Shown here piece by piece: positions 4,681-63,042 of a stretch of 64,000 nt of DNA. The position numbers and the translations under genes were made by a program. The notes under the pieces are model-generated. The model did no database searches. It was not told the DNA's origin and saw only the letters and a list, made by a program, of their open reading frames with translations. The DNA comes from Candidatus Nomurabacteria bacterium (GTDB lineage Bacteria; Patescibacteriota; Minisyncoccia; Phycocordibacterales; CALRBL01). Positions within the stretch are counted from its first letter, which is position 1, and the number at the start of each line of letters is the position of its first letter. The DNA lies in the NCBI GenBank assembly GCA_963834935.1, contig CAWIDS010000001.1, positions 1,338 to 65,337 of the forward strand, written 5' to 3'.

Positions 4681-5040
4681 TTGCCATATTATGCAAATCG
4701 CTTGCATAATATGAGAACCAACGTATACAAAGGACAGATACTGAAGCTGCTTAAGAAAAAGCATCTTTTGACTATCGCGGAAATTCACAAAGCTGTTCCG
4801 AATGCCGACTATTCCACGGTCTTCCGCAATGTCGAGCAGCTTCTCAAAGGCAAGCAGATCAAGAAAATCATGGTCGACAACCGGTCTATCGCGTACGAGT
4901 TTTCAAAAGACAGTCATGATCATTTTATCTGCAACGATTGCGGAAAGGTCGAATCGATTCACCTGCCCCGCAATTCAATCAAAGACCGCAAGATTGACGA
5001 TATTACCATAAGAGGCAGTTGCGGTAACTGCACAAATTAA
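4681..5040 (+). CDS. Fur-family metalloregulator (Fur/Zur/PerR-like).
   Basis: The ORF track starts at TTG 4681; the ATG at 4711 is the likely start. Winged-helix N-terminal domain, then HDHFICNDCGKV and a C-terminal CGNC. The next gene begins 1 nt after the stop. Confidence 0.8.
   Translation: MPYYANRLHNMRTNVYKGQILKLLKKKHLLTIAEIHKAVPNADYSTVFRNVEQLLKGKQIKKIMVDNRSIAYEFSKDSHDHFICNDCGKVESIHLPRNSIKDRKIDDITIRGSCGNCTN
4685..4713. promoter_or_regulatory. Perfect 12-5-12 palindrome (candidate operator) whose last triplet is the ATG of the Fur-family gene.
   Basis: CATATTATGCAA-atcgc-TTGCATAATATG. The two arms are exact reverse complements. Confidence 0.6.
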
Positions 5041-5995: not shown

Positions 5996-7484
5996 CAATA
6001 TTAAAAACCTCCCCGATGACGGCAAGCCGTCTTTGCTTGAGACGGAAAAAAGCAAACTGGTATACGCCGGCCCGGCTTCGATTTTGGATTATCTCAATCC
6101 CGACAATACTCCCTACACGCCGCTAATAGAAATTCCAGATCATCTTAATCCGTATCTCAAAAGCGGGGTGAGGATCTTTGCGAAGCTCATGAATGCGCTG
6201 CCTCTCGCAAACGTGAAGTCGCTTCCGGCGTACAACATGCTTCTCGATAGGAAGGAAAAAGGACCGCTGCCGGACACCATCATCGAGAACTCATCAGGTA
6301 ACACGGCATTTTCTCTTGCGGTCATTGCCCGGCTTATGGGCATACCACATACAAAAGCTGTCGTCTCTCACGAGGTAAGCCGCGGCAAACTCAACATACT
6401 GCGTCTTCTCGGTACCGAAATAATCGTCAATGACGAGCCCATTTGTCCTGATCCAAGCGATCCAACGAGCGGAATCTACAAAGCAAAGGAATGGTCAAAA
6501 GAGAACGGCTGGTTCAACCCCGGACAATACGACAACGAAGCTAATCCTGCCGCTCACTACAAATGGACAGGTCCGCAGATATGGGACCAGACAAAAAGTA
6601 AAATTTCCCTGCTCTCCACCGGTCTTGGAACTACGGGCTCAGCCGTGGGAATCGGTACATTCCTCAAGGAGAAAAATAAAGACATTAAAATTCTTGGCGT
6701 AACGCGCATCGTTAATAATCAAATACCCGGTGTTAGAACTGCCAGCCTTCTCAAAGAGGTCGCTTTTGATTGGCGATCGGTGATCGATTTTCAAGAAGAA
6801 GTCGGCACAACTGAATCGTTCAAGATGTCCATGGAGCTATGCCGGTCCGGATTATTCGTCGGACCAAGCTCAGGCTTTGCCTTGGTAGGACTTTTGAATC
6901 ATATCGCAAAGCAAAAGCTCTCCGGTGAAGAAAAAATAGCCGTCTTCATCTGTCCCGACAGTCCGTTTCCCTATATCGACGAGTATTTTCAATATCTTGA
7001 TCCCGCAGTTTTCCCAGAAATCCAGAATGAGCGACTGCTTAAGGAAAAGATTCAGATCAGCCCGTCGCAAAGTGCCGCCATCAAAGAGCTTGGCCCGCTG
7101 GAAGTGTTTGACCTTATTTTTACCGGCACACCCGATAAAGTCTGGGAAAAAATAGGAAACAAGCAAGAAGCAGATATCAAAAAAGGATTCGCTGTGATTG
7201 ATGTCCGTAACGAAGGAGAGTATGAAGACCACCACATCCCGGAATCGATCCATGTTCCCTTTCATGAACTTGATGAATTCCTCAAGAAAAACAAGACGAG
7301 CCTCGCCAGAAATGAAGCGGTCATTTTCGTCTGCAAACATGGCAATGCAAGCCGGCTCGCTGCTTACAAAGCGGAGGAACTTGGTCTCAAACCGATCAGC
7401 CTCAAAGGCGGCGATGCCGAATGGAGCAGGCTTGATCTGCCAAGAATCCGTGCTGAGAAATGCATCATCAAATTCGATTTATGA
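5976..7484 (+). CDS. Cysteine-synthase-family PLP enzyme (fold type II) fused to a C-terminal rhodanese domain.
   Basis: PLP-lysine region ANVKSLPAYNM. Glycine loop TGLGTTGSAVGIG. C-terminal rhodanese with active-site loop CKHGNAS. Overlaps the previous gene by 20 nt. Confidence 0.8.
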   Translation: MTSHSDNNIKNLPDDGKPSLLETEKSKLVYAGPASILDYLNPDNTPYTPLIEIPDHLNPYLKSGVRIFAKLMNALPLANVKSLPAYNMLLDRKEKGPLPDTIIENSSGNTAFSLAVIARLMGIPHTKAVVSHEVSRGKLNILRLLGTEIIVNDEPICPDPSDPTSGIYKAKEWSKENGWFNPGQYDNEANPAAHYKWTGPQIWDQTKSKISLLSTGLGTTGSAVGIGTFLKEKNKDIKILGVTRIVNNQIPGVRTASLLKEVAFDWRSVIDFQEEVGTTESFKMSMELCRSGLFVGPSSGFALVGLLNHIAKQKLSGEEKIAVFICPDSPFPYIDEYFQYLDPAVFPEIQNERLLKEKIQISPSQSAAIKELGPLEVFDLIFTGTPDKVWEKIGNKQEADIKKGFAVIDVRNEGEYEDHHIPESIHVPFHELDEFLKKNKTSLARNEAVIFVCKHGNASRLAAYKAEELGLKPISLKGGDAEWSRLDLPRIRAEKCIIKFDL

Positions 7485-8184: not shown

Positions 8185-8399
8185 AAAGATAATTTGATTA
8201 GGCTATTAAATGAAATAGACTGACAGACTAATTATACACTTTAATTTTATCTTCGTTTGCTCCTTACGTACGGTACTATATCATTTTTTCCGAACACCTT
8301 TAAGTTATCCACAATTCTTCATTTTTCATGTTTGATTATTCAAAAGAGAAATTTTAAAATCATAAACGGACCCTGTACCCGTGAAAAAAGAACACGACA

Positions 8400-18463: not shown

Positions 18464-18697
18464 ATGAATAAGACCATGAAAAATAAAATACTTGTAATTG
18501 GATCGGTTATACTGGGCATATTGTTTTTAGCACTCTCTTTCGTCTATTTTACCACTCCAGCCGGGTCCCTTCCTTCATTCATACCAGGTTTTGAGCCGGG
18601 CATTGTCAGCACTCATGTAAAGCACAGCGTTGCCTGTTTCATACTGTCACTCGCACTGTTCATCTTCGCCTGGTTTAAAAGCGCAAAAAAAGCGTAA
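18464..18697 (+). CDS. Small 2-TM membrane protein.
   Basis: ORF of 77 aa with two hydrophobic helices. Confidence 0.45.
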   Translation: MNKTMKNKILVIGSVILGILFLALSFVYFTTPAGSLPSFIPGFEPGIVSTHVKHSVACFILSLALFIFAWFKSAKKA

Positions 18698-19517
18698 GCG
18701 CTCCCACGATTACACAATAGGCCGCAAAAGGAAAAAGGGTCTTCTTCTCGAAATACTTCGTCAGGAATTTTACGGAAAAATATGCGCCGAGAGCGGAAGC
18801 AACCGAACCGGCAACTATGGGTGTAATCGCGTAACTCTGGTTTCCAATGAGTTCTGGCAGTTTCAAGACCGCGGCAGCAAAGATGATTGGCGTGGCAAGG
18901 AGGAACGAGAAATGAGCGGCATCTTCATGATTGAGGCCTATAAGTAGTCCACCACTGAGTGCCGCTCCTGTCCTTGAAAAGCCCGGAATGAGTGCCAGAG
19001 CCTGCGCAAAGCCTATCTTCACGCTCTGACCCCACGAGAGGTTCCGAGTATTAACAGTGGCTGCTTCCCTTTTTTTGCTTCTGCTTATGAGTTTTTCTGC
19101 CCCATAAAGCATGAGGCCGTTAAGAATGAGAAAGAAAGAAGCAGAACGCGGTGAAGCAAAAAGGATCTTGAATTTCTCTTCAAACAGCAAGCCGAGGATT
19201 CCCGCCGGGATGGTAGCGACCACCAGAAGCCAGCCAATCCTCTCGTATTTGTCTGCGGGGTCAATCAGCCGATTTTTCAGTGATCTAAAAATACCTTTTA
19301 TGATTAGCGCCCACTCCTTGAAGAAAAAAATAAACAACACGAAGGAGGTAGCTAGGTGTGTGGCTACGATAAAGATGAGGAAAAGATTTGAATTCTGGTC
19401 GATAGTCCATCCCAAAAGTGAAGGAATGATAACAGTGTGACCAAGACTGGAAACCGGAAAGAGTTCGGTGATTCCCTGGAAAAGGCCCAGGATTGTTGCC
19501 TGAAAAAGCGAGAACAT
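18675..19517 (-). CDS. uppP: Undecaprenyl-diphosphatase UppP (BacA).
   Basis: Motifs ITELFPVSSLGH and PGFSRTGAA. Eight TM helices. Confidence 0.9.
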   Translation of the reverse strand: MFSLFQATILGLFQGITELFPVSSLGHTVIIPSLLGWTIDQNSNLFLIFIVATHLATSFVLFIFFFKEWALIIKGIFRSLKNRLIDPADKYERIGWLLVVATIPAGILGLLFEEKFKILFASPRSASFFLILNGLMLYGAEKLISRSKKREAATVNTRNLSWGQSVKIGFAQALALIPGFSRTGAALSGGLLIGLNHEDAAHFSFLLATPIIFAAAVLKLPELIGNQSYAITPIVAGSVASALGAYFSVKFLTKYFEKKTLFPFAAYCVIVGALTLFLRF

Positions 19518-23714: not shown

Positions 23715-23726
23715 ATATTTTTATAT

Positions 23727-23763
23727 TCCCACTTCTTCCCACTTATCTACTATCATATCCCAC
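23727..23763 (-). promoter_or_regulatory. Three direct GTGGGA repeats (MraZ-box-like) upstream of mraZ.
   Basis: TCCCAC on the plus strand at about 23727, 23737 and 23758. The spacing is 10 and 21 bp, as for known MraZ operators. Confidence 0.5.
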
Positions 23764-23799
23764 CTCTCAGACTGGGGTCAAATTACTTATCCACACGAT

Positions 23800-29901: not shown

Positions 29902-31143
29902 TTAAATGATTTCATCAAACTTGACGATAACTGAGTTCCCTGTTTTTCTTTCCGAAACTTCAGCAGAACCTACTTTGATAGTACGAGGGCTGACGACAAT
30001 CCTCTTCGGAATGCCAATGAGGTCGGCATCGGCAAATTTTGCTCCTACGCCGGCTTCCCGATCGTCGTAAAGGACTTCTTTGTTTCTGGATAGTTTTTCG
30101 TAAAGGCCATCGGCGATCTTCTTCGTCTCGCCTGTCTTGTCCTCGAGGGCAATGAGATGAACGTCGAACGGCGCCACACTCTCAGGCCAGACGATACCTT
30201 TTTCATCAGAAAGCGTTTCGACTATGGTTCCCATGAGCCGCGGCACTCCGATGCCGTATGATCCCATAATGACGTCGACAAGCTCGTCCTTCTCATTCTT
30301 ATACGCAAGCTCAAGCGGCTTGGAGAAACGCGTGCCCAGGCTGAAGATGTTTCCGACTTCGACTGATTTTTCTTCCACAAGCTCTTCGCGCTTCAAGCCG
30401 AGCTCCGCAAGCACCTCGTCACTGAGCACTTCCTTGTTCACTGCTATGTTCTTTTCCTTGCTTATGTAAATGATATCTTCTCCAGAAGGGGTGATTGTCT
30501 GGAATTCATGCGAATATTTCGAAAACACCCCACCGGAAGCGAACGTCACTAATGTCCTGTCTCCCAAGCCGGCTTTGCTGAAGATGTTCATGTAAGCTTG
30601 TTTGGCTTTCTCATAGAAAGTATCATGTTCTTCCTGGTTACGCGAGAAAGAATACAAGTCTTTCATCACAAATTCCCTGCCGCGCATGATTCCACTCTTA
30701 GCCCGCGTCTCGTTGCGGAACTTCGTCTGGAATTGGTAGGCGGAAAAAGGCAGGTCACGAAAAGAGCGGATATGATCCTTGAGCAGATTGGTCAGCGGCT
30801 CTTCGTGGGTGAAGGCCAAGCCGAGCTCAGTGTCGTTCTTGAGCTTAGTCTTGAACCAATTGTCGACTACAGCGTCATCAAAACGGCCTGTCTTTTCCCA
30901 GACTGACTTGTCTTGGAGCGATGCAAGGTGAAGCTCTTGGGCGCCGAGTGCATTCATCTCATCGCGGATGATCTGCTCTATCTTATTCAGCACCCGGAGG
31001 CCAAGCGGCAAAAAAGAATATACCCCAGCCATATCCTTGTGGATAAAGCCTGCGCGGATGAGTAGCTTAGCATTAAGAGAAACCTCGTCTTTTGGGGCAT
31101 CTTTACGCGTCTTGAATACCAGTTTTGATTGAAGCATGTCCAA
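29902..31143 (-). CDS. proS: Prolyl-tRNA synthetase, compact class II form.
   Basis: Motif 2 FRNETRAKSGIMRGREFVMKDLYSF. C-terminal anticodon-binding domain. Only 413 aa. Confidence 0.85.
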   Translation of the reverse strand: MDMLQSKLVFKTRKDAPKDEVSLNAKLLIRAGFIHKDMAGVYSFLPLGLRVLNKIEQIIRDEMNALGAQELHLASLQDKSVWEKTGRFDDAVVDNWFKTKLKNDTELGLAFTHEEPLTNLLKDHIRSFRDLPFSAYQFQTKFRNETRAKSGIMRGREFVMKDLYSFSRNQEEHDTFYEKAKQAYMNIFSKAGLGDRTLVTFASGGVFSKYSHEFQTITPSGEDIIYISKEKNIAVNKEVLSDEVLAELGLKREELVEEKSVEVGNIFSLGTRFSKPLELAYKNEKDELVDVIMGSYGIGVPRLMGTIVETLSDEKGIVWPESVAPFDVHLIALEDKTGETKKIADGLYEKLSRNKEVLYDDREAGVGAKFADADLIGIPKRIVVSPRTIKVGSAEVSERKTGNSVIVKFDEII

Positions 31144-44112: not shown

Positions 44113-44124
44113 TGTAGCACGGAG

Positions 44125-46434
44125 CTATTCCAAATGAGAAATAAGCCTTATCACTTCGTCGTCGATAGCTTGCCACATTTCCTTGTAAAGCCTCAGTCCT
44201 TCCCTCTTATATTCGACAAGCGGATCGCGCTGACCGTAAGCGCGTAAGTTGACGCTTTGGCGGGTATAATCCATAAGCTCAAGATGATCTACCCAAAAAA
44301 GATCTATCGCCTGCAGCAGGACAGCTCGGACTATCCTCAGAAAATCAACTTCTGGAAGCTTGCTCTTCTTCTCGTCAATGGCTTTTCTCTCTTCATCCGA
44401 GCGCCTTTCATAAAGCTCATTGAACTGGATACTCACTTCCTGATCGTTTCCGAGAAGTATTTTCTTCCTTTTTTCGTACACCGTCTTTCGCTGAAGAGAG
44501 AGCACATCGTCGTATTCGAGAACATGCTTTCGCGCGTCGAAGTGGAAGCCTTCTATCTTGGTCTGGGCATTCTCAAGGCCGCGAGTGATGAGATAGTTCT
44601 CGATCGGCTGATCTTCAGGAATGCCGAAGCGGCCCATCATGTTCTTGATGGTGTCAGTAGCGAAGACTTTCATCAGGTCGTCCTCAAGCGAGACGAAAAA
44701 TTGCGTTTCACCGGGATCTCCTTGGCGTCCCGAGCGTCCGCGAAGCTGATTATCGATGCGTCGCGCTTCATGGCGTTCCGTGCCGATGACAAAAAGGCCC
44801 CCGACGCCTTTTATTTCTTCATAAAGCTCATTGCTGGCAAGCGGTCCGCCCAGCTTGATATCCACCCCACGTCCGGCCATATTAGTAGCAATGGTCACTC
44901 CGCCTTTCTTTCCCGCTTCAGCCACAATCTCTCCTTCGCGTTCCGCAAACTGTGGCTTTGCATTGAGAATCTCATGCTTCACTCCTTCTTTTTTCAAATA
45001 GGCGGAAAGCAGCTCATTCTTCTCGATAGAAACCGTTCCCACGAGCACCGGCTGGCCTTTGAGATTGAGTTCCTTTATCTTCTTGGCGATCGCCATGAAT
45101 TTTCCTTTCTCAGTCTGGAAGATAAGATCATTGCGGTCGATGCGGGCGATCGGACGATGAGTAGGCACTTCGATCACGTCCAGGCGGTAGACTTTCAGAA
45201 ATTCTTCCTTACTTGTCGAAGCTGTTCCTGTCATTCCTGCAAGCTTCTTGTAGAGGCGGAAATAGTTCTGGAAAGTGATTGATGCCGCCGTGCGCGATTC
45301 TCGCTGAACCTTCACTCCTTCTTTGGCTTCAACTGCCTGATGCAAGCCCTCGGACCAGCGCCTGCCTGCCTGCAAGCGCCCGGTGAATTCATCAACAATG
45401 ATCACTTCGTCTGATCGGACGACATATTCCTTGTCCTTATGGAAAAGAGCCTTCGCCCGGACCGCAGTTTCGAGATGATGAACATATTTTATACCCTTCT
45501 CCGTATATATGTCTCCGACGCCGAGCAATCCCTCAGCTTTAGTAATGCCGGCGTCAGTCAACGAGACCTGCTTAAACTTCCTGTCAACAGTATAGTCTTC
45601 GTCTTCATTCAGCTTTTCAGCGATTTTGGCGAAAGTGGCATAGAGATTCTCCGATTCAGCGGTAGGAATGGAAATGATAAGCGGAGTGCGGGCCTCGTCG
45701 ATAAGGATAGAGTCTATCTCGTCGACGATCGCGTACTGATACTCCTTCTGGCGGACATTGTTCGGATCACGCTCGATATTGTCGCGGAGAAAATCGAAGC
45801 CGAATTCATTGTTGGTTCCGTAAGTGATATCCGCAGAATAGGAATCCTTGCGCGATGACGGCCGAAGGAATTCATGAACAACTTTGAATGATCCCACTTC
45901 GTCGCGCTTTGCATCAAGGTCCGTATGAGCTGGATCATAGAGGTAGGAAGCGTCGGTATTGATGACTCCGACCGATAATCCAAGAAAAGAGAAGATCTGT
46001 CCCATCCACACCGCATCGCGACGGGAAAGATAATCGTTGACCGTCACGATGTGCACGCCCTTTGCAAGGAGCGCATTGAGATATGCCGGCAAAGTGGCGA
46101 CCAGTGTTTTTCCTTCTCCCGTCTTCATCTCGGCGATCGAGCCGTTGTGGAGTGCGATGCCTCCGATAAGCTGGACGTCGAAGTGGCGCTGCTTCAAAGT
46201 GCGGCGGCTTGCCTCTCGAACGACAGCAAAAGCTTCAGGAAGGATGTCTTCCAAAGTCTTACCTTGGGCTAGAAGCTCCTTGAAATAAGGGGTTTTTGCT
46301 TTGAGTTCGGCATCGGAGAGGGCTTCTATTGCCGGTTCGAAGGCGTTTATGGCCGAAACAAGCGGCTCATAACCCTTGATTATCTTTTCGCTCTGGCTCT
46401 TGAAAATCTTGTTTATGAATGACATGGACATCAC
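44125..46434 (-). CDS. secA: Preprotein translocase ATPase SecA, compact form.
   Basis: DEAD-like motor domains and preprotein-binding domain. 769 aa. Confidence 0.95.
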   Translation of the reverse strand: MMSMSFINKIFKSQSEKIIKGYEPLVSAINAFEPAIEALSDAELKAKTPYFKELLAQGKTLEDILPEAFAVVREASRRTLKQRHFDVQLIGGIALHNGSIAEMKTGEGKTLVATLPAYLNALLAKGVHIVTVNDYLSRRDAVWMGQIFSFLGLSVGVINTDASYLYDPAHTDLDAKRDEVGSFKVVHEFLRPSSRKDSYSADITYGTNNEFGFDFLRDNIERDPNNVRQKEYQYAIVDEIDSILIDEARTPLIISIPTAESENLYATFAKIAEKLNEDEDYTVDRKFKQVSLTDAGITKAEGLLGVGDIYTEKGIKYVHHLETAVRAKALFHKDKEYVVRSDEVIIVDEFTGRLQAGRRWSEGLHQAVEAKEGVKVQRESRTAASITFQNYFRLYKKLAGMTGTASTSKEEFLKVYRLDVIEVPTHRPIARIDRNDLIFQTEKGKFMAIAKKIKELNLKGQPVLVGTVSIEKNELLSAYLKKEGVKHEILNAKPQFAEREGEIVAEAGKKGGVTIATNMAGRGVDIKLGGPLASNELYEEIKGVGGLFVIGTERHEARRIDNQLRGRSGRQGDPGETQFFVSLEDDLMKVFATDTIKNMMGRFGIPEDQPIENYLITRGLENAQTKIEGFHFDARKHVLEYDDVLSLQRKTVYEKRKKILLGNDQEVSIQFNELYERRSDEERKAIDEKKSKLPEVDFLRIVRAVLLQAIDLFWVDHLELMDYTRQSVNLRAYGQRDPLVEYKREGLRLYKEMWQAIDDEVIRLISHLE

Positions 46435-46449
46435 TATATCACAAAAGTA

Positions 46450-46488
46450 AAAACCCCTTCATCTTTCGACGAGGGGGTTTTTACTAAG
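46450..46488. terminator. Bidirectional terminator-like hairpin upstream of secA.
   Basis: AAAAACCCCTTC...GAGGGGGTTTTT, flanked by A- and T-tracts. Confidence 0.55.
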
Positions 46489-46499
46489 TGGGAAGAAAA

Positions 46500-46577
46500 T
46501 TATTTCTTTCCTTTCTTCTTTGTAGCTTTCTTCTTCTTTGCTACAACTTTCTTCTTTGCTTTCTTCTTTGCTGGCAT
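46500..46577 (-). CDS. Tiny lysine-rich peptide (MPAKKKAKKKVVAKKKKATKKKGKK, 25 aa). Speculative.
   Basis: ATG to TAA ORF built from an AAG/AAA simple repeat. Followed on the minus strand by the 46450-46488 hairpin. Confidence 0.25.
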   Translation of the reverse strand: MPAKKKAKKKVVAKKKKATKKKGKK

Positions 46578-46707
46578 AGTATTGAAATTACTTATAATAG
46601 GTATTTGCATTAGCGACCTAAATTTCTAATACAAAAACTTAATGTAATTATCTAACAAATAAATTGCTTACACAAACTTTTTTTCGTAAAACTGTGGATA
46701 ACTTTAG

Positions 46708-46788
46708 AAAAATAAAAGTGAAATAAATATTTTTGTTCGAGCGCCGGGACGGCTAAACCACAAAAATATTTATTTCACTTTTATTTTT
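46708..46788. repeat. 28-bp perfect inverted repeat (AT-rich arms) around a 25-nt GC-rich loop. Overlaps the dus stop codon.
   Basis: AAAAATAAAAGTGAAATAAATATTTTTG...CAAAAATATTTATTTCACTTTTATTTTT. The loop contains GCCGggaCGGC. Confidence 0.75.
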
Positions 46789-47764
46789 TTAAGATGGCGG
46801 AGACTTCAGCGAAAGAATTTGTTTCCATTAATTTTATTCGGAGTTCTTTTGCGCCATCAAAACCATTGAGATATGATTTGAAATGTTTTTTCATCAGCGC
46901 GAAATTCTTGATATCACCAAGGAGTTCATCGAAAAGCCTAGTGTGTTCCAAAAGAACCTTGATTTTCTCCTCTTCAGTAGGCTTTTTAGCCTTGCTGAAG
47001 AGCCATGGATTACCAAAAATGGCTCTGCCGAGCATGGCGCCGTCAGCTCCCGACTCTTTTACCCTTTGCTCTGCGTCCGCAAGATCAACGAGGTCGCCGT
47101 TTCCCAGAATAAAGGTCTTCACTTCATCGTCCTTCTGCATCTCATCACGGATCTTTACCACTTCATTAAGATGTTCCCATCGTGCGGGGACTTTCGACAT
47201 CTCTTTCATGGTCCGTGCATGCACAATAAGTGCATCAGGCTTTTCTGCCAGTAATTCTGGAATCCATTTATCAAGCTCGACCTTGTTGTAGCCGACACGA
47301 GTCTTTACCGAAATGCCAATCATGGGTACTCCTTTTTCTTTTGCTTCGTCTTCCGCGCCGTTGCGAAGCGCTTTGATGAGCTCGCGTGCCAGCTTCGGAT
47401 TTTTTATGAGCGATGCTCCCGCTCCTTGCTTCATCACCGCCTTGTCGGGACATCCCATATTTATATCCGCACCATCGAAACCAAGCCGCACCGCCAGTCT
47501 TCCTGCTTCATACATGTATTCAGGCTTCGAACTGAAGAACTGTGCTACGATCGGCCTCTCGCTCTCATTAAAAACAAGATCACGAAGAAGCTTTTCCTTC
47601 CCTTCTGGGTGGGCCAAAGCCAAACCATCCGCCGAGACAAATTCGGTCCACATCACGTCCGGCTTTCCATACTTCGCGATGACGCGCCGAAAAGACGTGT
47701 CTGTGACGTTCGCCATGGGCGCAAGCACCATTATCGGCTTTTTGAGTTTGTTCCAGAATGTCAT
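46781..47764 (-). CDS. dus: tRNA-dihydrouridine synthase.
   Basis: TIM-barrel Dus motifs VLAPMANVTD and MGCP. 327 aa. Confidence 0.9.
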   Translation of the reverse strand: MTFWNKLKKPIMVLAPMANVTDTSFRRVIAKYGKPDVMWTEFVSADGLALAHPEGKEKLLRDLVFNESERPIVAQFFSSKPEYMYEAGRLAVRLGFDGADINMGCPDKAVMKQGAGASLIKNPKLARELIKALRNGAEDEAKEKGVPMIGISVKTRVGYNKVELDKWIPELLAEKPDALIVHARTMKEMSKVPARWEHLNEVVKIRDEMQKDDEVKTFILGNGDLVDLADAEQRVKESGADGAMLGRAIFGNPWLFSKAKKPTEEEKIKVLLEHTRLFDELLGDIKNFALMKKHFKSYLNGFDGAKELRIKLMETNSFAEVSAILKK

Positions 47765-48210
47765 TATAAATTCTTCTCGAGAACCACACTTATTTCCTTT
47801 GCTCCTTTTCTTTTATAGAATTCTATAGCTTTGGTATTGCCTGCAGATGCCACATAACGAATTCTTTGTACTTGCTTATCTCGGCACCATCCTTCAAAAG
47901 ATTCTATTAATTTACCTCCTATTCCATGACCTCGATAAGATTCATTTACGTACATATTTTCTCCCTCGGCTAATTTGGTAACTGTGGTATAGTCTTCTTT
48001 TTCAATCATTCCGCCGGCGATGTAACCCACAATATCGCCTTCATTTTGAATCCTATAAGTAAAATAGTTTCTTCCCGCCTCGGAGAAGGAATATTCCCTA
48101 TTGATCATGGGATCAAATTCATTATTCTCTTTAATACACAGTTCATTATTCAATTTCTGAATTATCTCTAGATCATTGATTGTCGCTTTTCTTACGATTA
48201 TGTTTTCCAT
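47764..48210 (-). CDS. GNAT-family N-acetyltransferase.
   Basis: Acetyl-CoA-binding motif RGHGIGGKLI. Confidence 0.85.
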   Translation of the reverse strand: MENIIVRKATINDLEIIQKLNNELCIKENNEFDPMINREYSFSEAGRNYFTYRIQNEGDIVGYIAGGMIEKEDYTTVTKLAEGENMYVNESYRGHGIGGKLIESFEGWCRDKQVQRIRYVASAGNTKAIEFYKRKGAKEISVVLEKNL

Positions 48211-48223
48211 TTCTGTTTAAATA

Positions 48224-50830
48224 TTACTTTCCTAACACCTTCTTCAGATACTTTCCTGTATAGCTCTTCGGATTGTTGGCAACTTCCTCAGGGGTTCCCT
48301 TTGCGACAATGTTTCCACCAGCATCCCCTCCTTCAGGGCCGATGTCGATAATGAAGTCCGAAGACTTGATGAGGTCGATGTTATGTTCGATGACGATGAC
48401 GGTATTTCCCTTGTCAACCAGCTTCTGGATGATCTCGATGAGTTTCTTCACGTCTTCATAGTGAAGCCCGATGGTCGGCTCGTCCAAAATATATATCGAT
48501 TTTTGGATATGGGGGCGATAGAGCTCCGAAGAGATCTTCACGCGCTGCGCTTCTCCTCCTGAAAGTGTCGTCGCTGATTGCCCGAGCTCAAGATAACCAA
48601 GACCCACTTCATCAAGAGTCTTCAGCCGATCTGAAATGGATGGAATATCTTCGAAGAATTTCAAGGCTTCCTCGACAGTCATGCACAGCACGTCGTAAAT
48701 GCTCTTCTTCTTGTACTTCACTTCAAGCGTCTCCTTCATGAAGCGCTTGCCATTACAGACGTCGCAAGTCACGTAGACGGTCGGTAGGAAATGCATCTCC
48801 ACTTCTATCATACCGTTCCCTTGGCAGGTCTCGCAGCGGCCGCCTTTTACGTTGAATGAGAAGCGATTGGCTTTCCATCCGCGAGCCTTGGCTTCCGAAG
48901 TCTCGGCGAACATGTCGCGAATATGGGTGAAAGCACCGGTGTAGGTGGCTGGATTCGATCGGGGCGTGCGGCCGATCGGCGATTGATCGATGAGTATCGA
49001 GCGTCCGAGATATTCTGTACCGGTGAAGCTTCCGACATTGAAGAGTTTCGCTGTGCGGTAATTCTTCTCGAGGCGTGCCTGCAGATTTTGATGAATGATT
49101 TCGTAAACGAACGATGATTTTCCCGATCCCGAAACTCCGGTCACGCAAATGAAGCGGCTAAGCGGGATATCGACATTCAGATTCTTGATATTAAAAACAT
49201 TTCCTCCGCGAATCGAAAGCATGCCCATTTCCTTCGAACGCCTTTTCTGCGGAATTTCGATAACAGATTCGCCTCGCAGGTAGCTCAAAGTCAGCGAGCC
49301 GGATATGTTCTTCTTGGCGGTCAGAAGCTCGTCGAGATAGCCTGAGACGACGACATTTCCTCCATGCACGCCGGCACCCGGGCCGATATCTATGATGTAA
49401 TCCGACGCATATATGGTGTCTTCGTCGTGTTCCACTACTATTATGGTGTTCCCTGCGTCGCGAAGGCTGAGCAGCGTCTGGATGAGACGGTCATTATCCC
49501 GCTGGTGTAAGCCAATGGTCGGCTCGTCGAGAACATAAAGCGCTCCTACCAATCCAGAGCCGAGTTGCGAAGCCAGGCGGATACGCTGAGCCTCGCCTCC
49601 CGAAAGCGTATTGGCCCGACGCGAAAGCGACAGGTACTCAATGCCGACATCGTTCATGAAATTCAGGCGCGATTGGATTTCCTTTACCACCACTTTCGAA
49701 ATCTCTTTTTCTTTCGGCGATAGCTTCAGGCTTTTGAAGAAATCCGAGGCCCCTTTGATCGATTTGTCTACCAGATTGATGATGTTTATCTTCCCGCCAT
49801 CAACGATCAAGAAAACGTTTAAGGCTTCTTCGCGTAGACGTGCGCCATGGCATTTAGGGCATGGCTCATTGACGAAGAATCCCCGCGTGCCCAAACCATT
49901 GCACTCGGGGCAAGCGCCATACGGCGAGTTGAAAGAGAAAAGGCGCGGCTCGATCTCAGGATATGAGAAGCCATCGAACGGGCACATGAATTTCGAAGAG
50001 ATGAGGTGATCATCAGTCGGAGTGACAATGCGGAGCAATCCTTCGGATTCACCAAGTGCTTTCTCGATAGCCTCATTCAAGCGCTCGTCAAAAGCCTCTT
50101 TCTGCTTCTTGTCCTTGCTCGCGAGCTCAGATACATAAAAAGCATCAACAAGCACGTCGATACTGTGCTTCTTATTCTTCGAAAGAATGATCTGCTCGCG
50201 GAGCTTGTGCTTCACGCCGTCTACGCGCACTTCTTCATATCCTTTACCGAGAAGGTCATAGAGAAGCTGATAGTATTCACCTTTCCTTCCGACAACAAGC
50301 GGAGAGTAGATCGAGAACGTGAGATCGTCATAGGAAACACCCATGACTTCCTTCTTGCTTTTGACGGTATCAATGGTATTGACGGTCTTGATTATGCTCT
50401 CGAGAATCTCTTCCTTTGAGAGCTTCTTGATTTCCCTTCCACAGACGAGGCAATGCGGGCGGCCGATGCGGGCGAAGAGGATGCGGAGATAATCGTAGAT
50501 TTCGGTGATGGTGGCGACAGTGGAGCGAGGATTGTTCGAGCGGGATTTCTGGTCGATAGAGATAGCAGGCGAAAGGCCAGTGATCTCGTCGACATCCGGC
50601 TTCTGCATCTGGCGGAGGAATTGGCGGGCGTATGAGGAAAGCGACTCGACATAACGCCTCTGCCCTTCGGCAAAAATGGTATCGAAAGCAAGCGACGACT
50701 TTCCGGAGCCAGAAAGTCCGGTAATGGCCACCATCTTATTGCGCGGCATTTCCACAGTAATATCCTTCAGATTATGTGTCCGTGCTCCTTTGACAACTAT
50801 CTTTTCCTGGTGTTCTTTAGGTGTTTTCAT
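48224..50830 (-). CDS. uvrA: Excinuclease ABC subunit UvrA.
   Basis: Two ABC ATPase modules (GLSGSGKSS and GVSGSGKSS) plus zinc fingers. Start MKTPKEH. The ORF track over-extended to a GTG at 50869. TATAAT lies about 9 nt upstream of the ATG. Confidence 0.95.
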
Positions 50831-50903
50831 TAACGCGTAATTATATAAGATAAAAAAGTCCCCGTCCACCTTTGCAAGTGGCGAGGACAGAACGCGGATA
50901 CCG

Positions 50904-62778: not shown

Positions 62779-62976
62779 AAAGTAATATCACATTCTGCGG
62801 AAATAATCTATCTTTACTTTGCATTTTATTGATTACCTTGATTTACTCTTGAAGGCGGAGATGATCGAATATGAAAAAGATAATCAGTTTTTTAATAAAG
62901 CTTTTGCTTCACGCCGCGCCTGAAAAGCGCTCGCCACGAAGCGCCTTCGTTCCTGAATGGGATTAAAGTCCCTGCA

Positions 62977-63010
62977 AACAAAAACCCCGCACTTGCGTGC
63001 GGGATTTTTG
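62977..63010. terminator. Bidirectional terminator.
   Basis: AAAAA then CCCGCACttgcGTGCGGG then ATTTTTGTTT. Confidence 0.7.
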
Positions 63011-63042
63011 TTTGAGGAATTTTGCTTTCCTCTCCGAAAAGC

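Follow-up and report, generated by a model that had tools for sequence, protein, structure and literature searches.

A perfect AT-rich inverted repeat at the end of dus as a possible atypical intrinsic terminator in an uncultured bacterium of the Patescibacteria

Introduction

The geometry on which prediction programs rely, which is typical of intrinsic terminators although it does not strictly define them, is a GC-rich stem of ~5–14 bp and a loop of 3–8 nt. Among other hairpins of this general kind, the intergenic RNase III sites of phage T7 and the inverted repeats of plastid 3′-UTRs serve in processing and stability, and RNase III needs roughly two helical turns. Fold-back MITEs situated at gene ends are able to serve as terminators or as sites for RNase III, and what defines their families is a high copy number in each genome. 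Of the recombination sites, attC has the form RYYYAAC...GTTRRRY with extrahelical bases, and dif has 11-bp arms around a spacer of 6–8 bp. A-tract terminators work bidirectionally, and in E. coli the terminating ribosome represses terminators near the stop codon, the efficiency falling from ~90% to <10% at 5 bp (PMC4824070).

Here we describe an inverted repeat at the 3′ end of dus in a 64-kb stretch of DNA (hereafter the window, meaning the whole stretch that was analysed) from an uncultured bacterium. With bidirectional Rho-independent terminators it shares a gene-end hairpin, G–C closure beside a U-rich tract and an A-tract making a longer palindrome on two strands. Compared with such terminators, which have GC-rich stems of ~5–12 bp and loops of 3–8 nt, it has a 19-bp stem of ~16% GC and a structured loop of 23 nt; its stem starts 2 nt past the stop codon, it escapes standard scans and its activity is predicted only. 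Fold-back MITEs (Correia/NEMIS of Neisseria, the pneumococcal RUP and the enterobacterial ERIC) resemble it in their long terminal inverted repeats, gene-end location, length class of ~80–150 bp and possible TA flanks; in contrast to them it is present once in 64 kb, with no transposase nearby and one arm that is apparently native. The T7 RNase III hairpins and plastid 3′-UTR repeats (Plastid-psbA-4) have in common with it a long AU-rich intergenic or 3′ stem, which would stabilise the upstream mRNA, but the present repeat is bacterial (Patescibacteria), reaches no Rfam threshold and gives matches on both strands, which marks them as generic.

The inverted repeat and its genomic context

All local genes lie on the minus strand, in the order uvrA, GNAT, dus, repeat, AT-rich stretch, mini-ORF, terminator and secA. 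The features of the region are:

48224–50869, minus strand: uvrA, first gene of the uvrA–GNAT–dus string
47764–48210, minus strand: GNAT acetyltransferase gene, between uvrA and dus
46781–47764, minus strand: dus, encoding tRNA-dihydrouridine synthase (Pfam Dus, E=1e-53), last gene of the string
46704–46792, no strand assigned: entire inverted repeat, arms of 33 bp with a single mismatch and 29 bp perfect, loop of 23 nt
46760–46792, minus strand: 5′ arm in the dus-sense RNA, an A-tract and then the stem, which starts with GUG (46778–46776)
46737–46759, no strand assigned: loop of 23 nt, TCGAGCGCCGGGACGGCTAAACC, 16/23 G+C (70%)
46718–46778, minus strand: predicted core terminator hairpin, 19-bp stem with a G–C/U–A/G–C clamp at its base
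46708–46717, minus strand: U-tract UUUUAUUUUU, directly 3′ of the core stem and forming the outer part of the 3′ arm
46692–46705, minus strand: conserved AAAGTTATCCACAG motif, first element of the module before secA, abutting the hairpin base
46647–46675, minus strand: promoter-like TTGTGT (46675–46670), 17 nt and GATAAT (46652–46647), conserved in the alignment
46500–46577, minus strand: poly-lysine mini-ORF of 25 aa, MPAKKKAKKKVVAKKKKATKKKGKK, from which relatives differ by in-frame indels
46446–46485, minus strand: canonical GC-stem terminator of the mini-ORF unit, conserved in relatives and followed by secA
44125–46434, minus strand: secA, the gene after the mini-ORF terminator

The arms are perfect over 29 bp (46708–46736, AAAAATAAAAGTGAAATAAATATTTTTGT, and 46760–46788), with 29 Watson–Crick pairs, no G–U pairs and no mismatches, and have ~10% GC; allowing one mismatch, pairing reaches 33 bp (46704–46792). 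A perfect repeat with a GC-rich loop had been reported in the preliminary description, and this held, whereas the sizes given there (28-bp arms and a 25-nt loop of 68% GC) are replaced by those above. The nested GC stem that it placed in the loop was located as a 4-bp mini-hairpin, GCCG (46743–46746) with CGGC (46750–46753), and the dus stop codon (TAA, 46783–46781) does fall within the right-hand arm. As had also been noted, the stem is much longer than those of the other terminators, the repeat being by far the longest inverted repeat of the 64-kb window; the AT-rich stretch of ~130 bp downstream (down to 19% GC within 46571–46746) and the lysine-rich mini-ORF were both found as described.

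A Markov model was used to simulate 40 sequences of 64 kb; their longest perfect arms measured 10–14 bp, compared with the 29 bp observed, and the expected number of repeats with 29-bp arms was <1e-8. The repeat folded with −38 to −42 kcal/mol on either strand (z-scores −7.3 to −9.0), and none of 200 shuffles folded equally well. The inverted repeat is thus confirmed as real and far beyond chance.

Copy number and family searches

Over the window and the collections searched, the repeat was single-copy. Within the source genome the search covered the 64 kb of the window and yielded no second copy, whether up to 3 mismatches were allowed or BLAST was run with words of 7 nt. Searching 185,579 GTDB species-representative genomes with a 22-mer of the arm gave three matches, all of them single arms in unrelated sequence with no partner arm nearby, and the 41 matches of a 20-mer in JGI metagenomes were all lone arms in AT-rich DNA with no hairpin. 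IMG/VR yielded one chance match to an arm and none to the loop, and BLAST searches against PLSDB plasmids and GenBank phages returned low-complexity fragments only (E ~0.3–0.9). The idea of a dispersed REP/MITE-like repeat, raised in the preliminary description, gained no support in the 64 kb or in any of these external collections.

A Pfam scan of 62 ORFs across the window revealed no transposase, integrase or recombinase. The gene content is housekeeping throughout (neighbours are uvrA, GNAT, dus, secA, AI-2E, MYG1 and Obg), and there was no break in composition at the repeat beyond the intergenic AT-rich stretch. Inspection of the sequence for att, attC and dif features showed ends without GTTRRRY and a spacing of 23 nt. 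An attachment-like site for an integrase or recombinase, which had been suggested earlier, gained no support, with no integrase among the 62 ORFs, no island boundary and no core motifs.

The best match in Rfam 15 was Plastid-psbA-4, with 41.8 bits against a gathering threshold of 56.8, and the remaining matches over the repeat were mostly to miRNA-precursor models, on both strands and below threshold. Membership of a curated Rfam family was rejected, since all matches were below the gathering threshold and were generic hairpin matches on both strands. In the Rfam scan of the whole window, a single tRNA alone reached the gathering threshold.

Anatomy of the predicted terminator

The core hairpin had a predicted free energy of −26.4 kcal/mol on the minus strand and −24.4 kcal/mol on the plus strand. 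Its stem has ~16% GC over 19 bp and a GUG/CAC clamp, and the only G–C pairs of the lower stem adjoin a tract with U at 9 of 10 positions. On the dus strand, a 6×6 internal loop lies between the 19-bp stem and the GCCG/CGGC mini-hairpin. The A-tract AAAAAAAUAAAA (46779–46790) takes in the TAA stop codon of dus and the two Lys codons before it, and the core stem begins 2 nt past that stop codon. Read from the other strand, the structure ends in UUUUAUUUUUUU. Other, smaller terminators of this genome, such as those at 62975–63014 and 46446–46485, likewise extend their inverted repeat through A-/T-tracts, and we infer that the 'perfect repeat' of 29–33 bp is a 19-bp stem plus the pairing of its A- and U-tracts.

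On a d'Aubenton-Carafa-type scale, the core hairpin with its U-tract scored +9.8 for the dus strand and +11.5 for the opposite one, compared with −13.5 to +34 for the canonical terminators of the window as delimited by hand. Taken as one hairpin, the whole 33-bp stem scored −62, with no U-tract after it; a stable hairpin followed by a U-tract is therefore present in the core hairpin but not in the full stem. The position is that of an intrinsic terminator, with the dus TAA in the 5′ arm and a separate promoter module next, whereas the 10% GC of the arms and the 23-nt loop depart from typical predictor geometry. A consensus terminator scan of the window did not call the repeat, because its loop is large and structured and its stem AU-rich.

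We consider the repeat to be an atypical predicted intrinsic terminator or insulator, symmetric and potentially bidirectional, with an unusually long AU-rich stem, and give this reading a probability of about 0.55. It is most likely an oddly shaped form of an ordinary signal, not a mobile element or a recombination site. Such a terminator would close the uvrA–GNAT–dus transcript and shield the promoter module that starts at the base of the repeat. As RNA polymerase exits dus, the GC mini-hairpin of the loop would nucleate folding, and the 19-bp AU-rich stem would next zip down to the GUG/CAC clamp; at clamp closure the RNA:DNA hybrid would hold UUUUAUUUUU as the last 9–10 nt, the classical configuration for release. 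Once the RNA is free, the U-tract could pair with the A-tract that also serves as the Lys-Lys-stop codons of dus, giving the perfect stem of 29–33 bp, and the mRNA would be left with a very stable hairpin at its 3′ end. On the opposite strand, the structure ending in UUUUAUUUUUUU would stop antisense transcription into dus. Because the stem starts 2 nt past the stop codon, and in view of the repression seen in E. coli, termination may depend on how closely ribosomes trail the polymerase.

A plus-strand sRNA ending at the hairpin was also considered; its sole candidate promoter, at 46571–46598, was apparently not conserved in the aligned relatives inspected, and this reading was dropped.

The conserved module before secA

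Dus and SecA assign the window to the Patescibacteria (Paceibacteria/Parcubacteria type). Both proteins had 100% identical database counterparts, encoded on one contig of 432,723 bp, and the nearest relatives after these showed 77% (Dus) and 84% (SecA) identity. Four relatives (L056, L057, L058 and L059) and the window, five genomes in all, retain a module before secA that consists of a AAGTTATCCACA motif, ~40 nt, TTGTAT-17-GATAAT (in the window TTGTGT-17-GATAAT), a leader, a Lys-rich ORF, TTCTTCCCACTTAG and a GC-stem terminator, followed by secA. The inverted repeat runs exactly up to the first base of the module. Both the motif, which is invariant ~40 nt upstream of the −10 box of the mini-ORF, and its ~40-nt spacing to the mini-ORF promoter are kept in 5/5 genomes. 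Its positions, and those of the ORF, in the relatives are:

AAGTTATCCACA motif: L056 4720–4730; L057 4682–4692; L058 4689–4699; L059 2387–2397
Poly-lysine ORF: L056 4875–4955; L057 ~4839–4919; L058 ~4846–4908; L059 ~2545–2625

What lies upstream of the module varies: dus in the window, DUF2914 after nrdAB in L056, L057 and L059, and the gene for a 1628-aa protein in L058. We also observed that bacA, the next gene after secA in relatives (L056 7355–8140), is ~25 kb away in the window (18675–19517, minus strand), and that nrdAB–DUF2914 is missing upstream of the module there; in the lineage of the window, rearrangement has thus affected the neighbourhood of secA on either side.

On the other side of the repeat, relatives with 70–77% identity in Dus have dus followed by a non-coding element and dnaX. 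The AT-rich repeat was absent after dus in these genomes, which cannot date it for that reason. The C-terminus of Dus in the window is a few residues shorter than in most relatives, and the stretch of 250–550 nt that follows dus in relatives is not found at the corresponding place in the window.

Within the AAAGTTATCCACAG motif of the window there is a perfect DnaA-box 9-mer, TTATCCACA (46701–46693), 2 nt from the stem base. The window holds four copies of the 9-mer against 0.34 expected, a number reached in 0/100 shuffles:

46692–46705, minus strand: copy beside the repeat
8300–8313, plus strand: second copy
23787–23795, plus strand: third copy
31038–31046, minus strand: fourth copy

The copy at 8300 is in another intergenic promoter-like region, and two copies lie 2–3 nt from a terminator hairpin, the second of these being 23787–23795 (3 nt away). 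The 9-mer may be a candidate site for a transcription factor (DnaA?). No cluster of DnaA boxes was found at the repeat, where one perfect box stands 15–38 kb from the other three, nor was there a turn in cumulative GC skew or a switch in gene orientation; an oriC or DnaA-box cluster was rejected on the basis of the single box and the absence of a skew turn.

Hairpins at the same locus in relatives

The sequence of the repeat was conserved in none of the relatives compared. In L057, where the module follows DUF2914, we found a stem perfect over 21 bp, GCAUAAAAUAAAACGGAUCUU, which encloses a GC mini-hairpin and folds strongly (dG −48, z −10); on the outside it has the tracts of the window repeat, AAAAUAAAA and UUUUAUUUU, and its core stem is unrelated. 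L056 and L059 have at the position of the repeat a weak AT-only palindrome that overlaps the stop codon (dG −9 to −11). In both, a perfect AT-rich repeat of 19–20 bp occurs right after ATCCACAG, with the mini-ORF promoter in its loop of 42–44 nt and a U-run behind:

L056 4732–4813 and L059 2399–2480: promoter-spanning repeat, arms TTTTCTAAAAAAATATTTGT and ACAAATATTTTTTTAGAAAA

The predicted dG of this repeat is −23 to −26, with z −3.8 to −4.9. L056 and L059 have the same arms but diverged loops, an indication that hairpins of this sort are under selection. Both arms would be present only in read-through transcripts from upstream, and the hairpin would for that reason stop read-through while sparing transcripts started at the promoter. 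No promoter-spanning hairpin was found in the window, L057 or L058 (z −0.2 to −1.2).

The hairpins of L056/L059 and L057 share with the window repeat the locus, perfect arms (19–21 bp), tracts of the AAAAUAAAA/UUUUAUUUU type, large loops and U-rich tails; they differ from it in their unrelated core stems, their placement relative to AAGTTATCCACA and the gene upstream. Three of four independent lineages thus have a strong hairpin with an unrelated core before or around the mini-ORF promoter, at one position or the other. This comparison, of only four independent lineages, suggests that a terminating or insulating function is needed here and may be supplied by different hairpins. Of the options listed in the preliminary description, that of an 'atypical terminator' fits the location at the end of uvrA–GNAT–dus and before a conserved promoter, the UUUUAUUUUU tract after the core stem and the hairpins in relatives. 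It had also reasoned that an element both unique and absent from relatives would be 'an unusual terminator only', and in the collections searched the repeat is both.

The hairpin found in L058 at the position of the repeat was dropped as an analogue, as it belongs to a separately conserved RNA-like motif. A conserved hairpin of ~60–85 nt, ATGGCGAGCG-ATTGCACTCACATAGATATTTACTTTGGAGCTCGCACC-CGCTCGCCAT, with a near-invariant loop and compensatory changes in the outer stem, occupies the nrdB–DUF2914 interval of three genomes and, in L058, lies upstream of the mini-ORF module (L056 3538–3621; L057 3359–3418; L059 ~1215–1290; L058 4586–4652). It corresponds to no Rfam family, is absent from the window and is a candidate cis-regulatory RNA.

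Single-copy perfect inverted repeats at stop codons were also observed elsewhere. One, at 4916–4989 of L004, encloses a 26-nt loop between arms of 24 bp and carries the stop codon in its 5′ arm; another, at 7319–7402 of L058, has 19-bp arms and a 46-nt loop and abuts the stop codon. The secA–bacA spacer that contains the latter measures 111 nt, versus 17 nt in L056 and L057. Neither repeat has a clear U-tract, and they lie 11–25 nt before the next gene.

Origin of the repeat

The module-side arm (46708–46736) matched a native T-rich tract before AAAGTTATCCACAG in L059 at 24 of 29 positions with a 2-nt gap when aligned by eye; only 56 of 5000 composition-matched shuffles aligned equally well, and low complexity limits the weight of the match. 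The other arm and the loop had no counterpart in relatives. This suggests that the module-side arm is native and that the other arm and the loop probably arose through local inverted duplication, or template switching, at the time dus came to lie upstream. Local inverted duplication is proposed because of the perfect Watson–Crick pairing, the single copy, the changed upstream gene and the lack of a counterpart of arm and loop, and selection for a terminator may then have kept the duplicated repeat. If it is true that such hairpins arise locally, they would provide a natural example of palindrome birth by template switching.

Four stop-codon hairpins of unrelated sequence were present in ~188 kb of related DNA (in the window, L004, L057 and L058), and a fifth hairpin encloses the promoter in L056/L059. 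A broader and rather unlikely proposal is that Paceibacteria-type genomes repeatedly form single-copy perfect hairpins at stop codons, which are then retained as RNase III sites or insulators. Arms of 19–29 bp and structured loops of 23–46 nt would in that case result from template switches that duplicate nearby T-rich sequence in inverted orientation, and the hairpins would stand between genes with promoters of their own, often placed as for leaderless mRNA.

Alternative explanations

Against termination it may be held that pairing entirely of the Watson–Crick type resembles a recent DNA-level event more than long selection on RNA. Five other explanations were weighed. The likeliest of them, though itself improbable, is a processing or stability hairpin, that is, an RNase III substrate or a block to 3′-exonucleases that separates or stabilises dus mRNA within a read-through transcript. 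The stem of 29–33 bp exceeds what RNase III requires, the best sub-threshold Rfam matches are long-stem hairpins that include the plastid psbA 3′-UTR element, and the long repeats of L004 and L058 described above (4916–4989 and 7319–7402) abut stop codons without a clear U-tract. However, these Rfam matches are generic, on both strands and below threshold, the present repeat has a good U-tract in register with the GC clamp, and a role in processing is compatible with termination. Next in order comes a fold-back MITE-like element of the Correia or RUP type, inserted at a TA at the end of dus and supplying its stop codon, which we also think unlikely. Its size of 81–89 bp and long terminal inverted repeats would fit, the flanks (TA|GAAAAAT...ATTTTTT|TA) are compatible with a TA target duplication, the perfection of the repeat suggests a recent event, Dus ends a few residues before most of its relatives, and a comparable insertion of ~90 nt separates secA and bacA in L058 as opposed to the 17 nt of L056 and L057. 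Yet no second copy was found in the 64 kb, GTDB, JGI, IMG/VR, plasmids or phages, where only single arms turned up, and no transposase was present among the 62 ORFs scanned; TA is self-complementary, which makes its 'duplication' indistinguishable from one more base pair of the stem, and the module-side arm looks native.

Still less probable is a functionless scar, an uneroded inverted duplication formed by template switching at the junction that joined dus to the secA module. The gene order, which is unlike that of all relatives on both sides (dus followed by dnaX; nrdAB–DUF2914 or others before the module), would agree with it, as would perfect arms in single copy without conservation and the match of one arm to native sequence. 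Against a scar stand several features to be expected of a terminator, namely the clamp, the U-tract, the A-tract reused as codons and the nucleating mini-hairpin; moreover, a strong hairpin has been retained at or around the mini-ORF promoter in other lineages, and the arms of L056 and L059 are identical while their loop has diverged. We regard as very improbable a site acting at the DNA level, either a cruciform or a symmetric protein-binding site with its DnaA-box-like motif, that would serve the promoter of the poly-lysine ORF or replication. A perfect TTATCCACA 2 nt from the stem base, invariant in five genomes and over-represented in the window (4 vs 0.34 expected), a second copy 3 nt from another terminator hairpin (23787–23795) and the very AT-rich local region speak for it, but it is the motif and the promoter that are conserved and not the hairpin, there is one box with no cluster, no GC-skew turn and no switch in gene orientation, and 29-bp arms set 23 nt apart are unlike the layout of any operator, dif or parS. 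An assembly artefact would be conceivable in a metagenome-assembled genome of an uncultured organism; its probability is close to negligible, given a small repeat inside a long contig that keeps the frame and stop codon of dus and is in register with the module, and comparable hairpins in independently assembled relatives.

Taken as the terminator or insulator that we favour, the repeat on its own is of little import, being one odd terminator-like hairpin in an uncultured bacterium. Standard predictors, which look for a GC-rich stem and a small loop, would nevertheless miss transcription-unit boundaries of this kind in Patescibacteria. The repeat also marks the upstream edge of a conserved, unannotated module before secA that is more interesting than the hairpin itself.

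Other conserved elements of the region

Five Paceibacteria-type genomes carry a poly-lysine ORF of 20–26 aa (MPAKKKAKKKVVAKKKKATKKKGKK, MAAKKKAKKVAKK and others) directly upstream of secA. It is served by a conserved promoter and a terminator of its own, and all differences in length are in frame. The peptides gave no matches in Pfam or NCBIfam, and the ORF was absent from the relative clade L060/L061. The product may be a putative small nucleic-acid-binding or ribosome-associated peptide. Between the mini-ORF's stop codon and its terminator, TTCTTCCCACTTAG (46486–46499, minus strand) is conserved in 5/5 genomes, and a similar sequence, CTTCCCACTTCTTCCCACTTA, is present in another intergenic region of the window (23725–23750, plus strand).

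Downstream of dus, relatives have a conserved TTGACA-17-TATATT promoter, a stretch of 250–550 nt and then dnaX. The stretch has an A-rich start, a GC-rich body, an aligned stop codon at its end and a strong terminator (L001 4701–5006; L002 4085–4420; L003 2453–2790; L010 6009–6330; L012 6018–6590). It was recognised by neither Rfam nor ARAGORN and is either a novel ncRNA or a small-protein gene.

Boxes resembling −10 elements (TACAAT, GATAAT and TATAAT) were observed 6–7 nt before the ATG of several genes that have no Shine–Dalgarno sequence (window 44113–44130, minus strand; L056 7340–7357; L057 7313–7330; L058 7411–7430), which suggests that leaderless mRNAs are frequent in this clade and that promoters serve genes one by one.
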